Positions 52,692-64,000 are shown, counted from the stretch's first letter. The stretch is DNA of 64,000 nt from Rikenellaceae bacterium (GCA_015059715.1 SUZV01000003.1:33544-97543), one strand, 5' to 3'. Notes: generated by a model not told the origin, from the sequence alone. Made by a program: numbers and translations.

Positions 52692-53057
52692 CTAAAATCT
52701 TATCTCAAGGTGTTCAATCTCGCCAAGCTGCTCTATCGTAAAGCTATCGGCATCGGCCATCTGAAACACCGCATCGAAGCTACTTACAGCACTATAGTCG
52801 TGGCTAAGGCCCTCGACGTAGGGCTCAACACAACCATCGCCCCAATCGACAGAGCCCTGAACACCCTCACCACCCCACGTCGGGGAGTTAAGGTGAGCCA
52901 TACTATGCCTAATGGTTAGATTTAGCATCTCTACCTCCGGTTGCTCATCGGGCGTAACTCCTGGGTCTGGCTCGGGAGTAGGCTCAACGACTCGATCAGC
53001 ACGCTTACATCCTGCCAGGACAAGCAGCACAGCTGCCATATATAAAAATCTCTTCAT
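52692..53057 (-). CDS. Small lipoprotein (121 aa) with a Pro/Glu-rich linker and a PKD-like DWGDG...HDY motif
   Basis: Lipobox LVLAGC. Starts 3 nt after the C10 peptidase stop. Contains VDWGDGCVEPYVEGLSHDY. Confidence 0.6.
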   Translation of the reverse strand: MKRFLYMAAVLLVLAGCKRADRVVEPTPEPDPGVTPDEQPEVEMLNLTIRHSMAHLNSPTWGGEGVQGSVDWGDGCVEPYVEGLSHDYSAVSSFDAVFQMADADSFTIEQLGEIEHLEIRF

Positions 53058-53060
53058 AGC

Positions 53061-54800
53061 TTACAAATCTTTAATCTTAAACGTATAGCTCCTACTCTCC
53101 GAGCCATCCTCTCGCTCAAGATATATCGTATAGATATCACCGCGACTGAGGAGGCTCGTATCGATAGTCATATAACGAGGCATCGAGATAACACCACCCT
53201 CCACCTTACTACCAAGTATATAGAGCTCAACACGCACATCCCTATCGTGCGAAATGGTTATCACCCCAGTGCTCTTATCGAACCTCAGCGACGTAGTATC
53301 GCCAATCGTAGGCTGCTTCAAAAGTATCTCCCACTGAGCTTTGTCGGCATAGGGCAGCATCGCAAACCACCTATCGCTCTCACTGCTACGATAGTATACC
53401 CTGAGCCTATCACCAGCAACAATCTCATCCTCAACCGTAGCCACGACACTCGCCACCGAGGTTGCGTAGCCAGCGTCGATAGAGAAGCCGACAGCCTCCG
53501 AGGCCCACGACTTAAACTCACCCCTAATATCACACACGCCCACGCGCACATCACCATCGAAGCTAACAACGGCGGCGTTGACCACAGAGATGGCATCAAT
53601 CGTAAATGGTTCGCGCTCGTTAAACTCTCTTGCCGACGTTGCCATGCCTGGAGCATTCACATAGAGCCAATTATCAACCTCGCCATCACGCATAGGGTGC
53701 ATGCCTAAAAACGCCCAGTGCTCAGTGTCGAAGAGGTATGCATCGAGGATAAGACCATCGATTCTAAAGAAGCCGTTGCTCACACCTCCCCAGCCCCAGT
53801 TGACGTGGAAGTAGTCGTTATCATCGACACCATCGATGACAAAGGCGTGACCCTCCTGATCAGCCGTATAGCCACTATATAGTATAGGCCTATTGGCCTC
53901 TATCTCGCTACGCAGCAGCTCATGCCAGCTCTCTGTCGAATAGTAGTTGCGTATAACATAGTGACACGAGGGGCTGTAGCCATAGTTACTGTACATCGCC
54001 ACGCCATCGGGCAGCGCAGCAGTAGACTCAGCAGCATAGTCCGCCTTAAAGGAGTGGCCAAGGTCAGCCATAAGCATCGCGACAGCCTCGCCCTCGGCCT
54101 GGCTATACTCACCCTCGACATACTCATAGAGCATATTATCCCAGTCGTAGCTATGGTTTAAATCGCGCGCAGGGACCTCAATACCCTTAGTATAGGTGGT
54201 AAAGGGTTCAGCTACACCCTGCGCCCTTACGGGCCAACGATTATAGTGCATAATGATAGCCATGGCTGTCTGCGTACACCCTGTGAGCGACTGCGCATCG
54301 CCATCCATGGGGCAATAGATGTTGTATGGCGCAAACTGACTCCAGCGAGCCGTATTTAGCAATGTAGCATTGACAGGCTGATACGCCTCACTCCACAGCT
54401 CTACAGTAGCCTTGTCGGCCGCGATATCATTATCTCGCACATAGCCTACAACACTATCAACATAGCGTAGCCACGCTGCAAAGTTCTCGGGTAACATATC
54501 GCAGGATGCAACCTTGTCGCTTGTCGAGTATGCCAAGATGGGTGCTACCCTATCGTCGCCAGCAACAATGACAAAGCCGCGACCCGACTCTGGCGTGATA
54601 ACGTAGAACGTGGGCTCTACGCCGTGGCGCGTAGCTATCAACGCGCTACTATCCCATGCCACAACAACATCCTCACCTCGCGTAGCCTGGCCCAACACAC
54701 CGCGTGCAATATCTATAGCGACACACGACGGCACCTCCTTAGCTACCACACCCCCTATCGACAAGATAGCGGCAACAATTATTAGATATAGTCTCCTCAT
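53061..54800 (-). CDS. C10-family (streptopain/PrtT/interpain-like) cysteine peptidase with an N-terminal Spi-type propeptide and a T9SS C-terminal sorting domain
   Basis: Propeptide PTFYVITPESGRGFVIVAGDDRVAPILAYS. Catalytic Cys in LTGCTQTAMAIIMHYNRWP and His in GHAFVIDG...HVNWGWGG. The last ~75 aa (VRVELYILGSKVEGGV...DTSLLSRGDIYTIYLE...YTFKIKDL) fit the Por secretion tail pattern. Confidence 0.85.
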   Translation of the reverse strand: MRRLYLIIVAAILSIGGVVAKEVPSCVAIDIARGVLGQATRGEDVVVAWDSSALIATRHGVEPTFYVITPESGRGFVIVAGDDRVAPILAYSTSDKVASCDMLPENFAAWLRYVDSVVGYVRDNDIAADKATVELWSEAYQPVNATLLNTARWSQFAPYNIYCPMDGDAQSLTGCTQTAMAIIMHYNRWPVRAQGVAEPFTTYTKGIEVPARDLNHSYDWDNMLYEYVEGEYSQAEGEAVAMLMADLGHSFKADYAAESTAALPDGVAMYSNYGYSPSCHYVIRNYYSTESWHELLRSEIEANRPILYSGYTADQEGHAFVIDGVDDNDYFHVNWGWGGVSNGFFRIDGLILDAYLFDTEHWAFLGMHPMRDGEVDNWLYVNAPGMATSAREFNEREPFTIDAISVVNAAVVSFDGDVRVGVCDIRGEFKSWASEAVGFSIDAGYATSVASVVATVEDEIVAGDRLRVYYRSSESDRWFAMLPYADKAQWEILLKQPTIGDTTSLRFDKSTGVITISHDRDVRVELYILGSKVEGGVISMPRYMTIDTSLLSRGDIYTIYLEREDGSESRSYTFKIKDL

Positions 54801-55094
54801 AACTTAAGAAATCCTCTACGGATAAGTAATAGGTTATAGATTGTCGAGGTGCTCTGCGCAGGTTGCTCGACCAACTTATGGCACCCTCTTAAAAAAGGGG
54901 TAACTCCACTAAGGAATTACCCCATAATAGGTCTACTTAAGAGGCTAAAGAAATTCTACTTACAGAGTCGTTATAAGGATTTTGAACCATCTGTGTTAAC
55001 CCTAAAAGGGAGCAGAGCCGCAACTACGCAACCAATAAGACACAGAGGATGGCAAAATATCCCTTAGCGACTTATTAAAGAGCCTCTTAACCCT

Positions 55095-55556
55095 CTACAA
55101 GAGGGGCACAACCTCCAACGAGCGAGTAGTGGTAGCCTCAGCCTTCACCTCCTCTGGAATCTCGCACTTGGTATATACGCTTGCGACGCTTGTATCCTCC
55201 TGGCTATACATCGTGAGAGTATCGCCCTCGACAGCGAACTTATAACCCGATGCCCATATCGAGCCATCGCTATAAAGACCTGTAACAATGCTGCCACTTA
55301 CGTTATAGCTACCCTCGAAGAGCTCGTAAAAGAGTGTCCACGTCTGCTGGTATATCTGGAAAGTAGCGTCATCGTTAAAGGCTACATATACACTGAACTC
55401 TGGAGTCTCCTCATTCCACGATGTAAGTACCCACTCACCTACCAATTCTGAACTTGAAACACCGCCACCAGGCTTGTTCTGGTTGTTCTCCTTGTCGCAA
55501 CCTACGAGCATTGCTGCAAGCAATAACATCATAGATAGTATCTTGAAACTTTTCAT
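55095..55556 (-). CDS. Lipocalin-like small lipoprotein (153 aa), partner A
   Basis: Lipobox MLVGC followed by acidic/polar DKENN. Beta-rich body GEWVLTSWN...YQQTWTLFYELFEGSYNV. Paralogue of 58288..58767. Confidence 0.6.
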   Translation of the reverse strand: MKSFKILSMMLLLAAMLVGCDKENNQNKPGGGVSSSELVGEWVLTSWNEETPEFSVYVAFNDDATFQIYQQTWTLFYELFEGSYNVSGSIVTGLYSDGSIWASGYKFAVEGDTLTMYSQEDTSVASVYTKCEIPEEVKAEATTTRSLEVVPLL

Positions 55557-55589
55557 ATCGTTACTCAATTTTTGCGTTATCAAATTATA

Positions 55590-57587
55590 TTACAACCAGC
55601 CACCAGGAGTTATAGGAGCACCTGTGCCATCGTCGACCTTAACACCTGGACGTACCACCAAGGCGAACTCCTGCTCGGCCTCCATACCGCCAGTAATCTG
55701 TCCGCCACCTACCGTATTGCCGCCAGCGACATATTTTAGCTTGACGAGTGCCGAGCCAGGCTTTGTACACGTAAGAAGGAGCTTGCTACCCATAAAGCGG
55801 CAGTCTGTGATGCCGAGCTTCTCCTTCACCTCCTCTGATATTTCAGACTCAAGCATCTTAACCTGAACATTACCATCGCCAATGTAGTTGCTGATGTCGA
55901 GGATAACCTGCTCGCCGAGAGGCACTGGAATACATGTAGTACCACGCACGGCCATAAGCACACGATAAGCATCGATAAGACCAGTACCCATCTTATTTTT
56001 GTATGAGGTAAGGTTCATAGTACCACCCGTTTCGAAGTGTGCCTTTGAACCATCGAACTCAAGAGCCGATACCGAAGATACGATGATATCCTTAAGCTCG
56101 GGGAGTGTAAGCACGATGCCATTGTCCGCAGCATAAGAGATAGCCAAGGCTGCGATGCCCGACACATGTGGGCAAGCCATAGATGTACCCTGCATAAAGG
56201 CATACTTATCGCCAGGCATTGTAGATGCCACACAACCACTCTCTACTGACGAACCACTACGACGGAAGTACTCACCACCAGGAGCCGAGACGTTACAGCC
56301 ACGGTCGTAGCAAGTATAGTATGTAGGACATCCATCAGGACCTATAGACGATACAGCGATAAGCTTGTTATAGGCTGCTGGATAACCCGCTACAGCCTTA
56401 CCATCGTTACCCGCAGCGAAGATGATGATACCACCCTCGAGATTTGGATGGTTCTTAGTGGTCATAAAGTACTGGAATGCCGTCCACTCTACGCCTGTTG
56501 AGCCACTCTCGAACATATTGTCGTTCGAGATAGCACCTGCCTCGAAACCCCAAGAGTTCTGCAATACGCAAGCACCACGATCTGCGGCATACTCTACCGC
56601 TGCTGCTGTAGCATTTACACCTGCTGCGTTACCGCCCGAGATAATCTGGCATGAGAAGATACGCACACCATCGCCATTGCCCGAACCACCTGCTACGCCA
56701 GCAACACCGAAACCATTATTTGTAACAGCGGCTACAGTACCTGCCACGTGAGTACCGTGACCCTGGTCGCCATTGCGTGTCCACGTTACGCGGCCACTAT
56801 CTACGAAGTTGTAGCCATATACATCATCTGTATAGCCGTTACCATCATCATCAACACCCTCGGTACCATTCTTCTCGGCCTCGTTGACGTGCATATTAGG
56901 CTGCAAATCCTTGTGTGTGTAGCACACACCCTCGTCAACTATCGCTACTACAACATCGGGGCGACCTGTCGTAAGTTCCCACGCTGCAAAGAGGTTGATA
57001 TCGGCACCAGCCTTAGCATTTGGGAAGTCTACAGTGCCATCGTTGTTGTAGTGCCACTGTCGGGGCAGCAGCGTATCATCGAAAGGCACGCCCTCGGCAC
57101 GTGTTGTAGCTATGGTGCTCATATCTATCTCTACGCTCTCTACCTTAGGTTTATCAATCATTGTAGAGAACTGCACACGCTCTACGTCTGCAATCTTTGC
57201 AAGGCTACGAGCGGCAGCGTCGAGGTCTGCATCCTTCGAGAAGGATACTGTATACCAACGGTGCATGTTAAGCTCGCGCTTACGCTCGGCGTTAACCTTG
57301 AGGTTAAATACGGGCTTAAGCTCGTTTGCTCCGATAGATGCCACAGCCTCGTCAAGGGCTATAATGCCCGAGCGAGTAGAGACCTGAGCACTCTCAAGGT
57401 TAGAAGCAGCCTCCTCGCTGACATAGATTATAAGCTCACCCCCGATGGCATTTGCCGAGGTGTTGACGAGCTTTGCGGCTGTAGCCACCTCCTCTGCCTG
57501 ACCATTAGGCTGATCTACAGGGTCTGTGACACACGCTGCGGCCACCATACCCACCAATGCAAGAAGTAAAATTTTGGTTCTATTCAT
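55590..57587 (-). CDS. S8-family subtilisin-like serine peptidase lipoprotein (665 aa), copy A
   Basis: Lipobox VAAAC. Catalytic motifs VAIVDEGV (Asp), HGTHVAGTVAA (His) and GTSMACPHVSG (Ser). Confidence 0.9.
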   Translation of the reverse strand: MNRTKILLLALVGMVAAACVTDPVDQPNGQAEEVATAAKLVNTSANAIGGELIIYVSEEAASNLESAQVSTRSGIIALDEAVASIGANELKPVFNLKVNAERKRELNMHRWYTVSFSKDADLDAAARSLAKIADVERVQFSTMIDKPKVESVEIDMSTIATTRAEGVPFDDTLLPRQWHYNNDGTVDFPNAKAGADINLFAAWELTTGRPDVVVAIVDEGVCYTHKDLQPNMHVNEAEKNGTEGVDDDGNGYTDDVYGYNFVDSGRVTWTRNGDQGHGTHVAGTVAAVTNNGFGVAGVAGGSGNGDGVRIFSCQIISGGNAAGVNATAAAVEYAADRGACVLQNSWGFEAGAISNDNMFESGSTGVEWTAFQYFMTTKNHPNLEGGIIIFAAGNDGKAVAGYPAAYNKLIAVSSIGPDGCPTYYTCYDRGCNVSAPGGEYFRRSGSSVESGCVASTMPGDKYAFMQGTSMACPHVSGIAALAISYAADNGIVLTLPELKDIIVSSVSALEFDGSKAHFETGGTMNLTSYKNKMGTGLIDAYRVLMAVRGTTCIPVPLGEQVILDISNYIGDGNVQVKMLESEISEEVKEKLGITDCRFMGSKLLLTCTKPGSALVKLKYVAGGNTVGGGQITGGMEAEQEFALVVRPGVKVDDGTGAPITPGGWL

Positions 57588-57649
57588 AGTTGTTTTAAGT
57601 TAAATGTTTCAGTTCTGGAGGCATAGCCTAATTACACTCTCTCAAGATG

Positions 57650-57657
57650 CAAAGATA
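57650..57657 (-). promoter_or_regulatory. Putative -7 promoter box for S8 copy A
   Basis: Minus-strand TATCTTTGCATCTTGA. The same TTTGCATCTTGA extension is found upstream of S8 copy B. Confidence 0.5.
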
Positions 57658-57889
57658 TAAAAAAATCGTTAATTGAAAGCATTTGGGGAATAATTTGCTG
57701 TGTAATTAGCAATTGTATTACTCTGTCATGTAATTTTCTAAACGCGAGTAAGTGATGACAGGTAGCGAGATTGAAAAATTTAGGGAGATTAGAGACTTGG
57801 GAAGGGGGAAGGAGAAATGCTCCCCTTAAAAGCTGCTTATTGAATAACCAACACGACCAAATTTTTGATTAGAAGGCTGTAGATGCGGC

Positions 57890-57985
57890 CTTATCGTCCT
57901 ATTGTCTTATCGTCCTATCGTCCTATTGTCCTATTGTCTTATCGTCCTATTGTCTTATTGTCCTATTGTCTTATTGTCCTATTGT
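57890..57985. repeat. Tandem array of 12 octamers CYTATYGT
   Basis: Units read in order: CTTATCGT CCTATTGT CTTATCGT CCTATCGT CCTATTGT CCTATTGT CTTATCGT CCTATTGT CTTATTGT CCTATTGT CTTATTGT CCTATTGT. A T-tract follows, then a degenerate inverted copy (57997-58033). Confidence 0.9.
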
Positions 57986-58050
57986 CTTTATTTTTTAGGA
58001 CATTATGACGTTAAGACCATAAGACATTAAGAGGTCGAGTATCATAACAA

Positions 58051-58157
58051 CGAATACCCTTAAACTACCCCTTAGCTCGCTACAAGCGAGCGAACTACCC
58101 TTTAGCAAGCTCTGCTTGCGCACTACCCTTTCCGCTTTAGCGGTGACCGCAAGGTCA
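58051..58157. repeat. Periodic (28-30 bp) ACTACCCYTT motif, each copy followed by a different short GC hairpin
   Basis: ACTACCCCTTAG at 58064, ACTACCCTTTAG at 58094, ACTACCCTTTCC at 58122, plus ATACCCTTAA at 58054. Hairpins are GCTCGC/GCGAGC, GCAAGC/GCTTGC, CCGC/GCGG and TGACC/GGTCA. Confidence 0.8.
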
Positions 58158-58183
58158 TCCACATTTGTTGTCAAAAGGGGTTA

Positions 58184-58269
58184 GATGTGACCTCGATAAA
58201 GAGATTGCCTCGAATGGGACATACTCGGTGTATTTCCCATTCGAGGCAATGATTGAGAGGTCGCAGATG
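58184..58269. repeat. REP-like compound palindromic element, copy B
   Basis: Inner 16-bp stem ATTGCCTCGAATGGGA / TCCCATTCGAGGCAAT. Shares the flanks GATAAAGA and AGAGGTCGCAGATG with copy A at 40872-40974. Lies 19 nt past the stop of the lipocalin-like gene. Confidence 0.75.
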
Positions 58270-58287
58270 CTGCCTTATAATCGAAAA

Positions 58288-58767
58288 TTATAGGTAGGGG
58301 GTAACATCTACAACTCCACGTGTCGCCGTAGCCTCCTCCTTAACATCCTCGGGAATGGTACATGCCTCATATACCGAGGTGATAGGATTAGCATCCTTGC
58401 TTACAAGAGTCAGCGTGTTGCCATCTGCTGAGACACCTCCTGTATACTCGCACTTCCACGCGCCAGCATCGAAGTAGCTACCCGACAAGGTGCCACCATC
58501 AACGTTATACTCGCCCTCGTAGAACTGATAATCGAGGGTATACATCTGCTGATAGAGGGCAAACAAACCTGTGCTGAAGCTGATGTATACGTTAAACTCG
58601 GCAGGCGCATCATTTACCGACACGAGCTTCCACTCCTTCTCTATATTCTCGAATGAGCCCGACTGGTCCACAGGCTTCTTATCGTTGTTATCATCACCCC
58701 CTTTATCGCAAGCTACAGCTGCCAATAGTACAACGAAAGCCAATGATAATGTCTTAAAGATCTTCAT
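58288..58767 (-). CDS. Lipocalin-like small lipoprotein (159 aa), partner B
   Basis: Lipobox AAVAC followed by DKGGDDNND. Contains YQQMYTLDYQFYEGEYNV and CTIPEDVKEEATATR. Confidence 0.6.
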   Translation of the reverse strand: MKIFKTLSLAFVVLLAAVACDKGGDDNNDKKPVDQSGSFENIEKEWKLVSVNDAPAEFNVYISFSTGLFALYQQMYTLDYQFYEGEYNVDGGTLSGSYFDAGAWKCEYTGGVSADGNTLTLVSKDANPITSVYEACTIPEDVKEEATATRGVVDVTPYL

Positions 58768-58798
58768 ATTTATATACTTTTTATCGTTCTACAACTTA

Positions 58799-60865
58799 TT
58801 ACAACCACGCTCCATTGTCGTTATTATCACGAGCCACGATGACAACATCCTTCTCCATAACCTTACCGCCTGGAGTGCCAACCTCGCCCTTCACGCCAGC
58901 AACATACTTAACGGTGATTGTACCTACACCAGCATTCTTGCACGTTAGATATATCTTATTGCTAAAGTAGTCAACCTTATCGATGCCCAAGCGGTCCTTG
59001 GTCTCGTCAGAGATTGAGTACTCAGCGTAGCTTGTCACCTTGATATTACCATCACCGATGAGTGAGCTAACGTTAATCTCGAGCTCCTGACCCACGATAG
59101 CAGGCACACAGATAGCACCACGCACGCTCTGGATGGCCATCAAGGCATCAATCTTACCTGTACCCATATTGCCCTTATAAGGGTCAAGCGACATGGTACC
59201 GCTCATATCTGCCCTATAGTAATCGTAGATATACTTGATACCTGTAAGCTTATCGTCGATATTACGTACCGATGATGTGATGATATCGTAGAGCTGGGTA
59301 TTAGTAAGCGTAATGCCATTCTCTACGGCATACGAGAGCACAAGAGCCGCAATACCCGACACATGAGGACATGCCATTGACGTACCCTGCATATAACCAT
59401 AGTCCGAACCATAAGGCTCATTGGTTATGGTATTTATAGTCTCCGAAGGCACTGTCGAGAGCACACAGCCATCATACTTATATTGACGGTTCTCAATTGC
59501 AAGGTCACCACCTGGGGCAGCAACATTACAGCCAAACTTATAGTTTGTATAAGTTGTTGGCAGACCATCGGGAGCATAGGCAGTAACGGCGATAAACTCA
59601 TTGTAGGCACCAGGGTAGTCAGCCGCTGCCTTAGCATCGTTACCTGCAGCGAAGATAGCCACGTTGCCATGCATTGCCGAGCAACCACTCTTGCTCACAA
59701 AGTAACGCAAACCAGCAAGCTCAACACCATAGTAAGACTGGTACTCGCCGTCCGACATTGTCTGACCCTCGCGGAGTGGATAGCCCCACGAGTTCTGTAT
59801 GATAGATGCACCCATATCTGCGGCATACTCAAAGCCCTTAGCATTTTGCGCCATAGAGCTATTGTTCTGACCGTCAAATATCTGAATAGACATAATACGC
59901 ACACCATCATTATTACCCGAGCCACCTGCTACACCTGCTACACCTACGCCATTGTTATTTACAGCAGCTACAGTACCTGCAACGTGTGTACCATGACCTG
60001 TATCACCATCCCAGAACGTACCATCATCGGTTTCAATAAACTTACCCTTGTCCCAAGAGATGTTACCATTTTCGGCAACACAGTTATAGCCGTGGATGTC
60101 ATCAACAATGCCATTGCCATCGTCGTCGACACCCTCAGCACCGCCCATCTCGGCTTCGTTTACCCACATATTGGCCGCAAGGTCAGGGTGGTTATACTTA
60201 ACACCCTCGTCCATAACAGCAACGACTACCTGACGACTACCTGTGGTATGTTTCCAGGCTGCATAGGCGTTGATATCCTCACCCTTAACCGAGTACTGGT
60301 AGATAGACTTCAAGCCAGGGTTGTCGTAGTGCCACTGCAACTCAAGCATAGGGTCATTAAAGGGGAGCTCCTCCGAGTTACGTGTTGTAAATTTCTCTGC
60401 TACAGGGTGTGCAGCCGAAACCTGTGGTCGCTGTACGAGAGTAGAGTACTGTACGCGCTTAACCTCGCTCAGTTCGGCAAACTTCTCGGCTACGGCTTCG
60501 AGCTTAGCCTCCTCGTCGAACTTAACGACATACCAGCGGTGAAGGCCCTTAGCACGCTTCTCGTCACCATTGATATTAAGGTTGAAGACTGGAGCGATAG
60601 AGGTTGCATCATACTCTACAGCTACAGCATCGAGAGCATCGTTACCCGAGCGTGTTGCGGTCTCTGCCGTAGCCCACAAATCTGCGGTCTGCTCATCAAC
60701 ATAGAGGATAAGCTCACCTGCTACAGCATTCTCAGAGGTGTTGATAATCTTCTTAGCCACACCACCCTGCTGCGATACAACGCCCTCATCCATTACTGGA
60801 TCGGCAACACAAGCTGCCGCGAGAAGTGCCACTAAGGCAAACAATAAAATTCTACCCTTGTTCAT
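58799..60865 (-). CDS. S8-family subtilisin-like serine peptidase lipoprotein (688 aa), copy B
   Basis: Lipobox LAAAC at ATG 60865. Catalytic motifs VAVMDEGV, HGTHVAGTVAA and GTSMACPHVSG. Confidence 0.9.
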   Translation of the reverse strand: MNKGRILLFALVALLAAACVADPVMDEGVVSQQGGVAKKIINTSENAVAGELILYVDEQTADLWATAETATRSGNDALDAVAVEYDATSIAPVFNLNINGDEKRAKGLHRWYVVKFDEEAKLEAVAEKFAELSEVKRVQYSTLVQRPQVSAAHPVAEKFTTRNSEELPFNDPMLELQWHYDNPGLKSIYQYSVKGEDINAYAAWKHTTGSRQVVVAVMDEGVKYNHPDLAANMWVNEAEMGGAEGVDDDGNGIVDDIHGYNCVAENGNISWDKGKFIETDDGTFWDGDTGHGTHVAGTVAAVNNNGVGVAGVAGGSGNNDGVRIMSIQIFDGQNNSSMAQNAKGFEYAADMGASIIQNSWGYPLREGQTMSDGEYQSYYGVELAGLRYFVSKSGCSAMHGNVAIFAAGNDAKAAADYPGAYNEFIAVTAYAPDGLPTTYTNYKFGCNVAAPGGDLAIENRQYKYDGCVLSTVPSETINTITNEPYGSDYGYMQGTSMACPHVSGIAALVLSYAVENGITLTNTQLYDIITSSVRNIDDKLTGIKYIYDYYRADMSGTMSLDPYKGNMGTGKIDALMAIQSVRGAICVPAIVGQELEINVSSLIGDGNIKVTSYAEYSISDETKDRLGIDKVDYFSNKIYLTCKNAGVGTITVKYVAGVKGEVGTPGGKVMEKDVVIVARDNNDNGAWL

Positions 60866-60906
60866 AGTTATTAAAAAATTAAAAATAATCATACCACTTC
60901 AAGATG

Positions 60907-60914
60907 CAAATATA
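60907..60914 (-). promoter_or_regulatory. Putative -7 promoter box for S8 copy B
   Basis: Minus-strand TATATTTGCATCTTGA about 41 nt upstream of ATG 60865. Confidence 0.5.
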
Positions 60915-61023
60915 AATAAAATTTTCGGTTATCGAAATATTTTAGCCTTTTCTCGAAAAAAAGTTGCATATATGCAAGGATGTTGGTTAGGCCAGTGTGG
61001 GTGGTGGTGCGAACACAAAACAA

Positions 61024-61048
61024 GCGGCCCACCCCAAGGGCAGGCCGC
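61024..61048 (-). terminator. Terminator after the 758-aa lipoprotein gene
   Basis: GCGGCC / GGCCGC stem followed on the minus strand by TTGTTTTGTG. Confidence 0.55.
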
Positions 61049-61073
61049 AAATAGTATTAAGGTTCTCTATTGA

Positions 61074-63350
61074 TTAGAAACCGAAAGTTGCGTTATTAAC
61101 GAGCACACGGTTAACTGGACCATTGTAAAGCTCAACGCGAACTGAAGCTACTGGAGCATCGTACTCAGCACCAAACTGAAGCTCTGCGCCAAGGCTCTTT
61201 GCAGATGCCCTGAATGCTGATGTTGTAGGCTCCTCTGTAGGCTCCTCTGTAGGCTCCTCAGCTGGCTCCTCAGTATACTCCAAAGTAGCATCTGGAGAGA
61301 AGTAGAAGTCATAACATACAAATGATTCATCCTCGAGCTTGAAGACACAGCTTGCGAAGTATGTCTCAAGACCAGTGAACTTATCATCAGTGTAAGAGAA
61401 TGTAAGGTCTGCTGGAGTCTCCAACTTAGCATCCGATGCAGCGAAGTAACCAAATGCCATGGTCTTAGCCTGGTCGTAGTAGAATGCATAGCTATTGAAG
61501 ATATAGTCCTCACGATCATTAACCTCCAAGCCATCGAATACAACGGTGTTAGTCTCAGCGTCAATTAAACCAAGGAACTGGAAGCCGTCAATCTCAACGA
61601 TAAGCTGACCTGCAGCAAGACCACCCATTAGGTTGAAGTCCAAGTCATACTCCTCGCTATCAACAGTCTCAGAGAGGTTGTATGAACCGAGTGCAAAGCC
61701 AGTTACATTAGGCAACTCCTTCTCTACGTATAATACCTGTGTATCACCATAGAGTGTCTGAACAGCTACGATAGCGCAAGATGTAGAACCTGAAGGCATG
61801 TTATATGGGCCCATAACTACTGAACCGTAGCCCTTCTCAGGATCATAACTCTTACGAATATTATCAAGAGCGCTCTTGAAGTCTTCGCCATAGCCAGCAA
61901 CAATCTGTGCATGAGTCATACCACTATTAGCAGCTACGTTAGCATCACCAATCCAAGCCTTGATAGATATAATCTCATGAGGATTACCAACGATACCAAG
62001 AGCTACAAAGTAAGCCTCTGGGAACTGCTCCTCATACTTATCATCACCAGTAACGTTAACTACTGAATCGTAGAACACCTTGATATCAGCCTTTGGAAGC
62101 TCACCGCCATCCTTGTGGAAGTAGAATGGATAAGTCAAAGCATCCTCAACCTTAGGCTCATCAGCATAAGGAACAGCTACGATAGTGTAGATACCTGAAG
62201 CGCCAAGGTCAAGCTTCCATGTAAGCTCGTCAGCAGAAGCCTCGAAGATAGTGATATCCTCGCTGCCAGCAACGATAGCCTCAATAGTATCAGCTGTATC
62301 TACAATATTACCCTCAAGAACAGTGAACTTGTATGACTCAACATCAGCACCTACTGCGAACTCGATAACAGCAGTAGTTGTGGTGTTGTCAGCCTCAGTA
62401 ACCATACCTGCATAAGCAGCAGAGATAGCGTAGTCCTTGATGTCGTAGCCAGGGAGTGCAAGAGCGAACAAACCTACCGTGTTAGCGTAGTTACCACGAC
62501 CATCTGGGATATGCCACATGATAGAGTTAGGTGTATTGAACCAGAATACGCCATTCTCGAACTTACCGTACATTGGTGTGTTCTCGTCAGCATATACCGT
62601 AGCAAGGAAGAAATCCTGTGGAGTACCACCCTGCTCAACAACGAGCTGGAAGCCAAGTGGACTTGAAGGAATCTCTACATTACCATTCTCGTCAACAACG
62701 AACTCAACGTAACCTGGGCCAGTGTAGGTCATATCTGAAGGTACACCACCGATGATGTAAGGACACATAGCCTGGCCATATGGATCAACCATACGATAAC
62801 GGTGTGGCTCAAGCTCGTGCTGAACAACCTCAACCTCGACCATTACGCCAGAAGGACCACCATACATTGGAGCGAGGAAGTCGTCACGATAGATACCCTT
62901 ACCCAAGCTAACCCAAGGCTCGGCTATACCTACTTTGAAGATGAACTGCGATGCACCATACTGTGAAGCCTGTGCCTGATCGAGCTGGATGTTCAAAGGA
63001 TACTTAACACCAGGAGCAAGATCCGAACCATTGAAAGTGATTACAAGCTCAGTCTCGGCCTGGCCTGCAGCAAACTTTACGCTGTTAGGTACTGTGAAGA
63101 AACCACATGACTCAACATCCTCAGAACGAAGGCTTATAGTAGCCTCTGCATCAACATTAAGACGTGCAACAGGAATAGCTACTGAGCTATCCTCGGCAGT
63201 AACTACAAGATCTGCAGTACTGGGGAAGTATACACCCTGGTTTGCATCCTTAGCTCCAGGTGTATAATCTGCATGCTCGTGTGTACACGATGCCAACGTG
63301 AAGACACCTACGACAGCAAGAAGCAGATATATAAAATTATACTTTTTCAT
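61074..63350 (-). CDS. Large surface lipoprotein (758 aa) downstream of SusD, in the position of SusE/F-like or surface-binding proteins; C-terminal (EEPT)n tract
   Basis: Lipobox TLASC at ATG 63350 (the TTG at 63359 is rejected). Multiple beta-sandwich-like modules. EEPAEEPTEEPTEEPT near the C-terminus. Confidence 0.65.
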   Translation of the reverse strand: MKKYNFIYLLLAVVGVFTLASCTHEHADYTPGAKDANQGVYFPSTADLVVTAEDSSVAIPVARLNVDAEATISLRSEDVESCGFFTVPNSVKFAAGQAETELVITFNGSDLAPGVKYPLNIQLDQAQASQYGASQFIFKVGIAEPWVSLGKGIYRDDFLAPMYGGPSGVMVEVEVVQHELEPHRYRMVDPYGQAMCPYIIGGVPSDMTYTGPGYVEFVVDENGNVEIPSSPLGFQLVVEQGGTPQDFFLATVYADENTPMYGKFENGVFWFNTPNSIMWHIPDGRGNYANTVGLFALALPGYDIKDYAISAAYAGMVTEADNTTTTAVIEFAVGADVESYKFTVLEGNIVDTADTIEAIVAGSEDITIFEASADELTWKLDLGASGIYTIVAVPYADEPKVEDALTYPFYFHKDGGELPKADIKVFYDSVVNVTGDDKYEEQFPEAYFVALGIVGNPHEIISIKAWIGDANVAANSGMTHAQIVAGYGEDFKSALDNIRKSYDPEKGYGSVVMGPYNMPSGSTSCAIVAVQTLYGDTQVLYVEKELPNVTGFALGSYNLSETVDSEEYDLDFNLMGGLAAGQLIVEIDGFQFLGLIDAETNTVVFDGLEVNDREDYIFNSYAFYYDQAKTMAFGYFAASDAKLETPADLTFSYTDDKFTGLETYFASCVFKLEDESFVCYDFYFSPDATLEYTEEPAEEPTEEPTEEPTTSAFRASAKSLGAELQFGAEYDAPVASVRVELYNGPVNRVLVNNATFGF
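61224..61271 (-). repeat. In-frame 12-bp tandem repeat (4 units) encoding EEP(A/T)
   Basis: TGTAGGCTCCTC x3 followed by AGCTGGCTCCTC on the plus strand. Confidence 0.8.
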
Positions 63351-63387
63351 ACTTTTCAATTTTTTCGTGTTTTGTTCCGACTAATTA

Positions 63388-64000
63388 CTACATATCCTGA
63401 ATAGCCATATAGATATCAGTTGGGTCAGGATTGTTCTTGTCAGCAGGAATACCCTGGTTTACCTGAGTCTCCGACTGAGGAACTGCTGGTGACCACCATG
63501 GCAAACGACCTGTAGACTTGAAACGTGCCTGAGGATCGTAGTTTACACTCTTAGTGCAGTCTACACCCATGTTAAGACGCTTCATATCGAACATAACGAG
63601 GCCCTCACCCCAGAACTCAATACCCTTCTGGAAGATAATCTCGTTGAGAACACCTGCCTCATCAGCAAATGGGCATACGTAGTTAGAGTCACGGTTAGCC
63701 ATGAACGCTACGAGCTTCTGCCATGCTGCATCAACACCCTGAGTGTGCAAGATTGCCTCCATCTCGATGAAGTACATCTCCTCGCAACGCATAACTGGGA
63801 TTGCAATAGCCGCAGCTGTCATAGCATCGTTACGGATACCCTGTGCAGGACGGAATTTGAAGAATGTATAAGGAGCAAACATATTGAAACCATCCTCATC
63901 ATAAGAGGTGTAAGGCATAAACTCAGCGTAAGTAGTCTCTGGACCGATAATAAGCTTCTTACGGAAGTCAGCATTACCAAGACGCTCGAAAGACTCTGAG
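63388..64000 (-). CDS. RagB/SusD-family outer-membrane nutrient-binding lipoprotein, C-terminal part (runs off the window)
   Basis: The frame is open to the window edge (SESFERLGNADFRKKLIIGPE...). SusD-type C-terminus with RCEEMYFIEMEA, FQKGIEFWGEGLVMFDMKRL and RLPWW. Confidence 0.85.
   Translation of the reverse strand, partial: SESFERLGNADFRKKLIIGPETTYAEFMPYTSYDEDGFNMFAPYTFFKFRPAQGIRNDAMTAAAIAIPVMRCEEMYFIEMEAILHTQGVDAAWQKLVAFMANRDSNYVCPFADEAGVLNEIIFQKGIEFWGEGLVMFDMKRLNMGVDCTKSVNYDPQARFKSTGRLPWWSPAVPQSETQVNQGIPADKNNPDPTDIYMAIQDM

Follow-up and report, generated by a model that had tools for sequence, protein, structure and literature searches.

The stretch of DNA analysed here, 64,000 nucleotides from a Rikenellaceae bacterium (GCA_015059715.1 SUZV01000003.1:33544-97543; the window), ends in a candidate protein-foraging locus at 52692-64000, in which a SusD-like lipoprotein stands beside peptidases and small lipoproteins. 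Coordinates are those of the whole stretch, and genes were read from the sequence. Listing the open reading frames (ORFs) from 52692 to the window edge gave an uninterrupted gene series, every ORF on the minus strand, in just the order reported by a first-pass annotation of the same DNA. Read downstream, the series opens with the C-terminal 203 aa of the SusD-like lipoprotein (63388-64000; Pfam SusD_RagB, E = 8e-5), followed by L758, a lipoprotein of 758 aa (61074-63350) carrying an (EEPT)n linker repeat (61224-61275; period 12, 4.3 copies according to Tandem Repeats Finder, with a weak PT-repeat match). Next come two pairs, each of an S8 subtilase lipoprotein and a lipocalin-like lipoprotein (Lcn), namely S8a (58799-60865, 688 aa; Peptidase_S8 3e-46, Peptidase_S8_N 6e-27) with Lcn159 (58288-58767; Lipocalin_4 0.0035, under the curated cut-off) and S8b (55590-57587, 665 aa, C-terminus GWL; Peptidase_S8 2e-41, Peptidase_S8_N 8e-27) with Lcn153 (55095-55556; Lipocalin_4 8.6e-5, and the family alignment). 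The series closes with C10, a SpeB-type cysteine peptidase (53061-54800; Inhibitor_I69 3e-15, Peptidase_C10 1e-57), and the small lipoprotein L121 (52692-53057, 121 aa), in which alignment reveals a PKD-like C-terminal domain. Pfam, repeat finding and lipobox inspection thus recovered the partial SusD, the EEPT-bearing lipoprotein and the 121-aa lipoprotein, and both subtilase/lipocalin-like pairs were borne out by Pfam, intact Asp/His/Ser motifs and a barrel model.

A lipobox Cys is found in SusD, L758, S8a, S8b, Lcn159, Lcn153 and L121 as well as in their orthologues. In SusD, L758, S8a and S8b, acidic residues always occur within 6 positions after this Cys, and acidic residues behind the lipid-bearing Cys fit the surface-export signal of Bacteroidota lipoproteins. 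Because they share this feature with SusD, L758, S8a and S8b are predicted to be surface-exposed.

The transporter gene expected beyond the window edge was located on a 145-kb metagenome contig of the Joint Genome Institute (JGI; locus L001), which encodes the exact L758 protein and is identical to the window across 12.9 kb. There, a 1096-aa SusC/RagA-family TonB-dependent transporter (CarboxypepD_reg, Plug 7e-19) is encoded directly 5' of the full 561-aa SusD, which matches SusD-like_3 at 3e-10 in addition to SusD_RagB. Adjacent genes for a susC-like TonB-dependent transporter and a susD-like lipoprotein, the mark of a polysaccharide utilisation locus (PUL), are hence present. A carbohydrate-active enzyme (CAZyme) family was detected in none of the cluster proteins by Pfam and NCBIfam scans, in agreement with the first-pass annotation, and the model of L758 described below likewise contains no catalytic fold.

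L758 itself belongs to no Pfam or NCBIfam family. Its AlphaFold2 model, built from a 26-sequence alignment (predicted local distance difference test, pLDDT, 78), is all-beta and comprises about five beta-sandwich/Ig-like domains with a short tail behind the disordered EEPT linker. Foldseek comparison of this model with the PDB returned immunoglobulin (Ig) and fibronectin type III (FN3) arrays, more specifically the Bacteroides DUF1735 multidomain proteins 3nqk, 3sot and 3p02 as well as BT3507 (4qni), described as 'auxiliary nutrient binding protein', with no catalytic or enzyme fold among the matches. L758 as a hidden CAZyme or peptidase was rejected, the model holding beta-sandwich arrays only. 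By position and architecture, L758 may instead be an analogue of surface substrate-binding proteins (SGBPs). The segment after the EEPT linker (residues ~714-758; 61074-61220) consists of about 45 weakly conserved residues with pLDDT <50, and some L758 orthologues end in FGF.

Conservation of the gene order was then followed across genomes. An initial genome scan with the L758 sequence alone as query gave no matches, and an alignment-based scan with one genome per GTDB species yielded 30 loci. Nearly all of these come from metagenome-assembled genomes that carry the name Alistipes sp. or Rikenellaceae and stem from the hindgut of ruminants, with two from human gut and two from mouse. Scanning metagenomes with the Lcn alignment added 37 further loci. 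The order SusC-SusD-L758-S8-Lcn-S8-Lcn-C10-L121 is retained while L758 identity falls to ~30%. Since the same order is found in dozens of species at such a protein identity, the clustering is far beyond chance, and the question raised by the first-pass annotation, whether the order is conserved in any relative, can be answered positively from both sets of loci and from independent chromosomal sites.

Variation within this order concerns whole modules: four genome loci have no C10-L121, one mouse genome carries a single S8-Lcn pair, and two metagenome loci carry three. An Lcn gene lies directly 3' of an S8 gene in 92 of 93 cases, S8 is followed by Lcn in 84 of 85, and C10 by L121 in all 28. Spacing follows the same division, being tight within modules (median gaps of 20 nt for SusC-SusD, 27 nt for SusD-L758, 32 nt for S8-Lcn and 3 nt for C10-L121) and wide between them (267 nt for L758-S8, 280 nt for Lcn-S8 and 66 nt for Lcn-C10). 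The first-pass annotation had described short spacers throughout the cluster; in the window, not all of them are short, as S8b is separated from Lcn159 by 700 bp, C10 from Lcn153 by ~294 bp and L758 from S8a by ~181-208 bp. In other loci, the Lcn-S8 spacer measures 32-590 bp, compared with these 700 bp.

Independent sites were sought by using distant Lcn relatives as queries and reading their contigs. Cassettes of SusC-SusD-L758-like-S8-Lcn, with L758-like proteins of 818-877 aa and 24-27% identity, were found beside a second susCD pair, folB/tyrS, MFS/ROK and sufBD genes, with a gap of only 16-78 nt between the L758-like gene and S8. In addition, bare S8-Lcn pairs reside between metK and ksgA in Rikenellaceae/Alistipes with no SusCD nearby (L071-L073, 6910-9465); their S8 is 39% identical to S8b and their Lcn 36-37% identical to Lcn153. 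Given cassettes at unrelated sites and bare pairs, the five-gene core SusC-SusD-L758-like-S8-Lcn is a recurrent unit and the S8-Lcn pair a module in its own right. Distance matrices were compared for 13 complete loci (L001, L004-L008, L011, L013, L016, L018, L021, L023 and L027). SusC and SusD distances correlate poorly with those of L758, S8a, S8b and Lcn159 (r ~0.1-0.3), whereas S8a and S8b correlate well with each other (r = 0.83), which suggests a mosaic history with modules exchanged between species.

Predicted regulatory elements follow the modular division as well. The Bacteroidota -7 promoter motif TAnnTTTG occurs on the minus strand upstream of S8a as TATATTTG (60907-60914) and 63 nt 5' of S8b as TATCTTTG (57650-57657), and both S8 promoters have the extended context TAtaTTTGCATCTTGAGAGAGT in common. 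Across loci, the motif is found within 120 nt 5' of S8 genes in 86-90% (90% before the first S8; 86% before S8b, at about -70), compared with 5.6% in background and 8% before C10. Directly 3' of the L758 stop, the window contains a terminator-like GC-rich hairpin of 11 bp with a T-run (61024-61048, minus strand), and directly 3' of the Lcn159 stop a strong hairpin with a ~16-bp stem (58206-58249, minus strand; free energy, dG, -29.4 kcal/mol). A strong hairpin is found 3' of L758 and of each Lcn in 95-100% of loci, with a median dG of about -20 to -25 kcal/mol against -13 kcal/mol in random background windows; the one after L758 is kept in 40 of 40 loci (median dG -24 kcal/mol) and the equivalent of that after Lcn159 in 95%. 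A third hairpin of terminator type, GGGGTAATTCC...GGAGTTACCCC with a T-run behind it, lies in the spacer between Lcn153 and C10 (54897-54923, minus strand). In most loci (e.g. L004-L032) it is positioned ~10 nt before the C10 ATG with no promoter motif between, and the window copy lies ~100 nt from that ATG. It looks like an attenuator that would set C10-L121 expression by read-through and, since no promoter motif intervenes, C10 and L121 are probably expressed from the S8b unit in this way. From the conserved hairpins and promoter motifs, the locus is predicted to comprise several transcription units built from the modules [SusC-SusD-L758], [S8-Lcn] in one to three copies and [C10-L121] in none or one copy, rather than one tight operon.

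With SusC upstream, no CAZyme and a conserved order, the architecture fits surface proteases feeding a SusCD importer. With three of the four conditions named for its refutation decided in its favour, this much of the first-pass proposal stands, while several transcription units are predicted and no regulator adjoins the locus. The reading favoured here, with a probability of roughly 55%, is that of a modular, lineage-specific Alistipes/Rikenellaceae SusCD locus which has peptidases as its enzymes and most likely serves protein or peptide foraging. In such a system, L758 would bind substrate at the cell surface as an SGBP analogue, the subtilases S8a and S8b would cut the bound protein there, SusD would capture the resulting oligopeptides, and SusC would import them with TonB energy, like RagAB. 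Each Lcn would dock on its cognate S8 by a C-terminal tail (...TR[S/A]xxVVPFL-COOH) resembling the pro/mature junction of the subtilase, and C10 might work in the periplasm, or L121 might tether or control it.

Several points weigh against the foraging reading. The substrate is deduced from enzyme content only. Genes for a hybrid two-component system (HTCS), a SusR-type regulator or an extracytoplasmic function (ECF) sigma/anti-sigma pair do not adjoin the locus (~5 kb upstream of susC were read), and SusC has no STN domain in Pfam or NCBIfam, so that the regulator anticipated by the first-pass annotation is missing from the neighbourhood. Separate promoters and hairpins permit independent expression of the modules. 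Most loci occupy one orthologous chromosomal site between a TonB-dependent receptor and kdtA (kdtA and fabF lie alongside in the mouse genome locus), and that part of the synteny is therefore vertically inherited. Lastly, SusC is no closer to RagA than to glycan SusCs, as RagA is among its best PDB matches (3e-96) with dextran and levan SusCs equal or better, and SusD has no specific likeness to RagB, which is absent from its PDB matches at E<=1e-3. Assignment as peptide or glycan importer by PDB comparison of SusC and SusD was consequently abandoned, since it did not discriminate.

Among its PDB matches, SusD finds 'carbohydrate-binding' SusD-like structures, and this speaks for an alternative that we consider unlikely, namely a glycoprotein or glycan PUL with its CAZymes elsewhere or in unknown families. 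SusCD would then import glycans or glycopeptides, and the peptidases would strip the protein backbone of glycoproteins such as mucins or those of plants and microbes. For CAZyme-less susC/D loci with peptidases, this reading is put forward by Lapebie et al. 2019 (PMC6499787). The resemblance of L758 to DUF1735/BT3507-type, SGBP-like proteins of glycan PULs and the BACON domains of L121 orthologues point in the same direction. However, neither BACON nor DUF1735-like folds are proven glycan binders, the peptidases are the sole enzymes in one to three or four copies, and no CAZyme occurs in ~65 loci or in the paralogous cassettes, the one GH2 gene, in L079, lying at a distance of 7 kb and being unrelated.

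The modular organisation also bears on a second alternative, in which the protease modules serve no nutritional purpose but attack defence proteins of the host (IgA, complement, mucus proteins) or the surface proteins of competitors, the SusCD-L758 operon next to them being unrelated. C10 enzymes of the SpeB/interpain type are classic virulence and immune-evasion factors (PMC2873492, background), the protease modules have promoters and terminators of their own, S8-Lcn pairs exist without SusCD, and SusC/D distances correlate with those of S8 and Lcn at only r ~0.1-0.3. Against this stands the occurrence of SusC-SusD-L758-like-S8-Lcn as a unit in at least four chromosomal contexts, with L758-like/S8 gaps of 16-78 nt, which leaves a non-nutritional role quite improbable.

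RagAB of Porphyromonas gingivalis is the precedent for oligopeptide import by a SusCD-type pair and, to our knowledge, this system from an oral pathogen is the one case of outer-membrane peptide uptake that has been worked out. The present locus would resemble it in the SusC/RagA-family barrel, the SusD/RagB-type lid and the presumed uptake of protease-made peptides. While the rag locus consists of ragA and ragB only, with gingipains encoded elsewhere and secreted by the type IX secretion system (T9SS), peptidase lipoproteins are here encoded in cis. With Sus-like PULs and their SusCD 'utilisomes', the locus shares the SusC/SusD pair, a large surface lipoprotein encoded after susD and hydrolases that are surface lipoproteins. 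It differs from them in having S8 and C10 peptidases and no CAZyme, no adjacent HTCS, ECF or SusR regulator, the extra partner lipoproteins Lcn and L121, for which PULs offer no counterpart, and several promoter/terminator-bounded modules. The first-pass annotation had regarded the composite layout as undescribed. In its general form the category is already known, as Lapebie et al. 2019 (PMC6499787) found 52% of 28,250 susC/D loci to be without CAZymes and 11% of those to contain sulfatases or peptidases. The present locus falls into the same broad category, which in that survey is a compositional one only. For the specific cassette, the L758 family or S8-lipocalin pairs, no published description was found in the literature searched, which is not proof of novelty; PMC5306329 likewise contains nothing about loci of peptidases.

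Outer-membrane protein and peptide uptake by gut Bacteroidota is less understood than glycan foraging. As a compact, recurrent unit that combines an importer with a putative binder, surface proteases and the partners of these proteases, the locus offers a testable model of a protein-utilisation locus. Alistipes-type bacteria are often linked to protein fermentation, and practical interest extends to gut protein fermentation in livestock and humans as well as to specific subtilase inhibitors. The most original element is the obligate pair of subtilase and lipocalin-like lipoprotein with conserved C-terminal tails, which may define a new protease-regulator family through the tail of the latter.

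Both subtilases contain the motifs DEGV, HGTHVAG, AAGND and GTSMACPHVSG with intact Asp, His and Ser, and for either paralogue, 21-25 of 25 orthologues share these motifs. In S8b, IVDEGV starts at residue 216, HGTHVAG at 277, AAGND at 391 and GTSMACPHVSG at 467. S8a consists of an N-terminal Peptidase_S8_N domain, the catalytic domain and a C-terminal beta domain ending in AWL. The Peptidase_S8_N domain is prodomain-like; as its profile found no homologue in the PDB, this label remains an inference. Every S8a and S8b protein has the junction A-x-TR[A/S]-x3-4-[V/L/M]PF-[D/N]D directly before QWHY, with which the catalytic domain starts. The S8b catalytic domain aligns with deseasin from residue 176, and in the alignment with mature deseasin the mature N-terminus falls near this A-x-TR[A/S] junction. 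At the other end, S8 proteins terminate in [G/A]-W-[L/M/F]-COOH in 52 of 52 full-length sequences (55590-55598 and 58799-58807 in the window), unlike L758, L121, C10 and SusD, whose C-termini are variable. The S8 proteins of distant cassettes and stand-alone pairs end in GWL, RWL or RWM. Such constancy of the last residues suggests that some partner, possibly the barrel of Lcn, recognises the free S8 C-terminus.

On the side of the partner, the AlphaFold2 model of Lcn (pLDDT 80.7) is an eight-stranded barrel with a helix at residues 140-148 and a C-terminal tail, and its best Foldseek matches are the uncharacterised Bacteroides lipocalin-like structures 4qrl and 5byp, followed by classical lipocalins. 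An exhaustive profile search gathered 830 clusters (at 50% identity) at E<=1e-3 and 533 at E<=1e-10. The family alignment shows invariant aromatic and Gln residues in the barrel, and conservation is highest in the tail, IPEE[V/I]KxEAxxTR[S/A]xEVVPFL-COOH; Lcn159 ends in ...EATATRGVVDVTPYL (58288-58353) and Lcn153 in ...EATTTRSLEVVPLL (55095-55160). Among 109 full-length representatives, 80% have Leu and 78% the tripeptide [R/K/P]-x-[L/F/M/I] at the C-terminus, and the 15 residues before this tripeptide are variable across the wider family. When profiles of the Lcn tail were compared with 5437 windows from all eight locus protein families, the top score, 13.4 (z ~4.9), went to the S8a junction.

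From the gene context it is established that Lcn is the cognate partner of the subtilase. As to how it works, the leading mechanism, still tentative and somewhat short of an even chance, is that of a membrane-anchored subtilase inhibitor or 'safety catch' which would act through its C-terminal tail. A model for this arrangement is provided by the potempins, small outer-membrane lipoprotein inhibitors encoded beside each KLIKK peptidase of Tannerella forsythia, of which PotE, PotB1 and PotB2 are eight-stranded up-and-down barrels and the subtilase inhibitor PotC has an oligonucleotide/oligosaccharide-binding (OB) fold (PMC9890683). In both systems, a peptidase gene is accompanied by that of a small (~100-160 aa) barrel lipoprotein, with several catalytic classes in one region, PotE is the top PDB sequence match of the Lcn profile, and Lcn shows the potempin-type gene arrangement in lying directly beside S8 (92/93, median gap 32 nt) with a lipobox throughout and presumable co-transcription. 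However, potempin genes precede the gene of their peptidase whereas Lcn follows S8, the KLIKK peptidases carry a KLIKK C-terminal domain (CTD) and are exported by the T9SS whereas the S8 proteins are lipoproteins, Tannerella has no SusCD link, and PotC inhibits through a loop and not through a C-terminal tail as proposed for Lcn. A second model is found in the staphostatins and Bfi of B. fragilis, lipocalin-like eight-stranded barrels that serve as self-protecting inhibitors and are encoded beside and co-transcribed with proteases (PMC2873492). These target cysteine peptidases, whereas the lipocalin-like Lcn proteins accompany serine subtilases.

The tail-mediated inhibition of subtilases has a number of observations against it. 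The best sequence match of the Lcn profile in the PDB, potempin E (8ehd), is weak (E = 0.011), marginal and partly due to the signal peptide, no potempin or staphostatin is among the top 50 Foldseek matches of the Lcn model, and the target of PotE is a metallopeptidase (PMC9890683). The likeness of tail and junction is short and was noticed post hoc, the runner-up in the profile comparison, a window of the divergent receptor described below, scored closely (11.9), and when all locus ORFs were searched with a hidden Markov model (HMM) of the Lcn tail, no single sequence reached significance (E>=0.13). S8 junction and Lcn tail show no obvious co-variation. In mirror-tree correlations on the same 13 loci, SusC-SusD as positive control reached r = 0.84 and S8a-Lcn159 0.63; the cognate pair S8b-Lcn153 gave only 0.40, less than the non-cognate S8b-Lcn159 with 0.57, so that cognate pairs are not singled out.

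ATR[S/G/A]-type motifs recur in the locus. Besides those of the Lcn tails, two lie in the N-terminal domain of S8 (ATRSG and the junction; S8b residues 57-73 and 160-169) and two in the I69 prodomain of C10 (ATRGEDVVVAW and TTRSGxxAPTF; residues 36-65, 54605-54695). They may recur by chance or mark a common site of processing after Arg.

The dentilisin PrtP complex of Treponema, with PrcB as auxiliary protein, illustrates another possibility. By analogy, and with the rest of the locus as in the foraging reading, Lcn could be a required auxiliary subunit or chaperone of the subtilase, or else a carrier of peptides or hydrophobic ligands handing products to SusD. The strict S8-Lcn pairing, including stand-alone pairs, would fit such a role, and both S8a and S8b score against the dentilisin PrtP model of NCBIfam (E ~1e-22 to 1e-24, below the curated cut-off). 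The lipocalin fold is classically a ligand binder, the aromatic and Gln residues of the Lcn barrel are invariant, and the S8 [G/A]-W-[L/M/F] terminus could itself be a ligand of the calyx. Yet NCBIfam reveals no detectable homology of Lcn to known auxiliary subunits, and its most conserved part is the C-terminal tail and not the barrel; we regard this role as possible and as somewhat less probable than inhibition. The more comprehensive proposal is similarly doubtful. It would make Lcn a family of lipocalin-fold, outer-membrane-anchored subtilase regulators with ~530 clusters, so far in Rikenellaceae only, whose free tail ([R/P]-aromatic-Leu-COOH) plugs or docks onto the cognate S8 by mimicking its pro/mature junction and which forms a 'proteolytic utilisome' together with SusCD and L758. 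If true, this would be a dedicated, self-protected protein-foraging machine of gut Bacteroidota.

C10 has a type I signal peptide, an I69 prodomain, the peptidase domain and two C-terminal beta domains, with Cys175 and His318 invariant in 19 orthologues, and no lipobox. The first-pass annotation had described it as a C10 peptidase with a T9SS sorting domain. The peptidase family is confirmed (Peptidase_C10 1e-57), whereas the sorting domain could not be recovered: neither Por_Secre_tail (PF18962) nor TIGR04183 matched at E<=5 in the window protein and 18 orthologues, and a PDB search with a profile of the final 100 residues turned up no CTD structure. A T9SS CTD was rejected on these Pfam, NCBIfam and PDB profile results, which a very divergent CTD could escape. 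The secretion of C10 claimed earlier is unproven because neither a T9SS domain nor a lipid anchor was detected.

Its partner L121 has a PKD-like conserved domain, recognised by Pfam as PKD_4 in 6 of 19 orthologues. A BACON domain is present in 15 of the 19. Compared with L004 19814-20404 and others, the window L121 is without this ~80-aa domain and has a Pro/Glu-rich linker in its place. Lipocalin or I69 signals were not found in L121. An inhibitor of C10 of the staphostatin/Spi/Bfi type was considered and rejected as regards family membership, L121 being PKD-like with BACON in orthologues. C10 belongs to the same peptidase family as Bfp of B. fragilis, and the partner thus differs from Bfi in being PKD-like, with BACON in most orthologues, and not lipocalin-like. 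By structure and gene context, the accessory lipoproteins to which the first-pass annotation gave no role can now be described as an SGBP-like L758, lipocalin-like partners coupled to S8 and a PKD-like lipoprotein coupled to C10.

On contig L001, the downstream border of the locus is formed by a convergent kdtA-like gene (Glycos_transf_N). Upstream of SusC lies a divergent second TonB-dependent receptor of 1032 aa (OMP_b-brl_4; L001 1229-4327) and beyond it a BACON/leucine-rich repeat (LRR) protein (L001 1-1014). The divergent receptor has no SusD partner and adjoins the locus in ~20 species at 68-88% identity. The mouse-genome locus L029 lacks this receptor, which is therefore probably a neighbour by synteny rather than part of the locus.

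Rfam gave no family at gathering score anywhere in the 64 kb. The 700-bp spacer between Lcn159 and S8b contains a 16-bp tandem repeat of 6.2 copies (57890-57988; unit CTTATCGTCCTATTGT, 91% matches, Tandem Repeats Finder score 163) with a weaker 8-bp array beside it (57995-58032). In the whole window, TAnnTTTG occurs 55 times compared with 28 +/- 5.6 expected, an excess consistent with a Bacteroidota genome that uses this -7 element.

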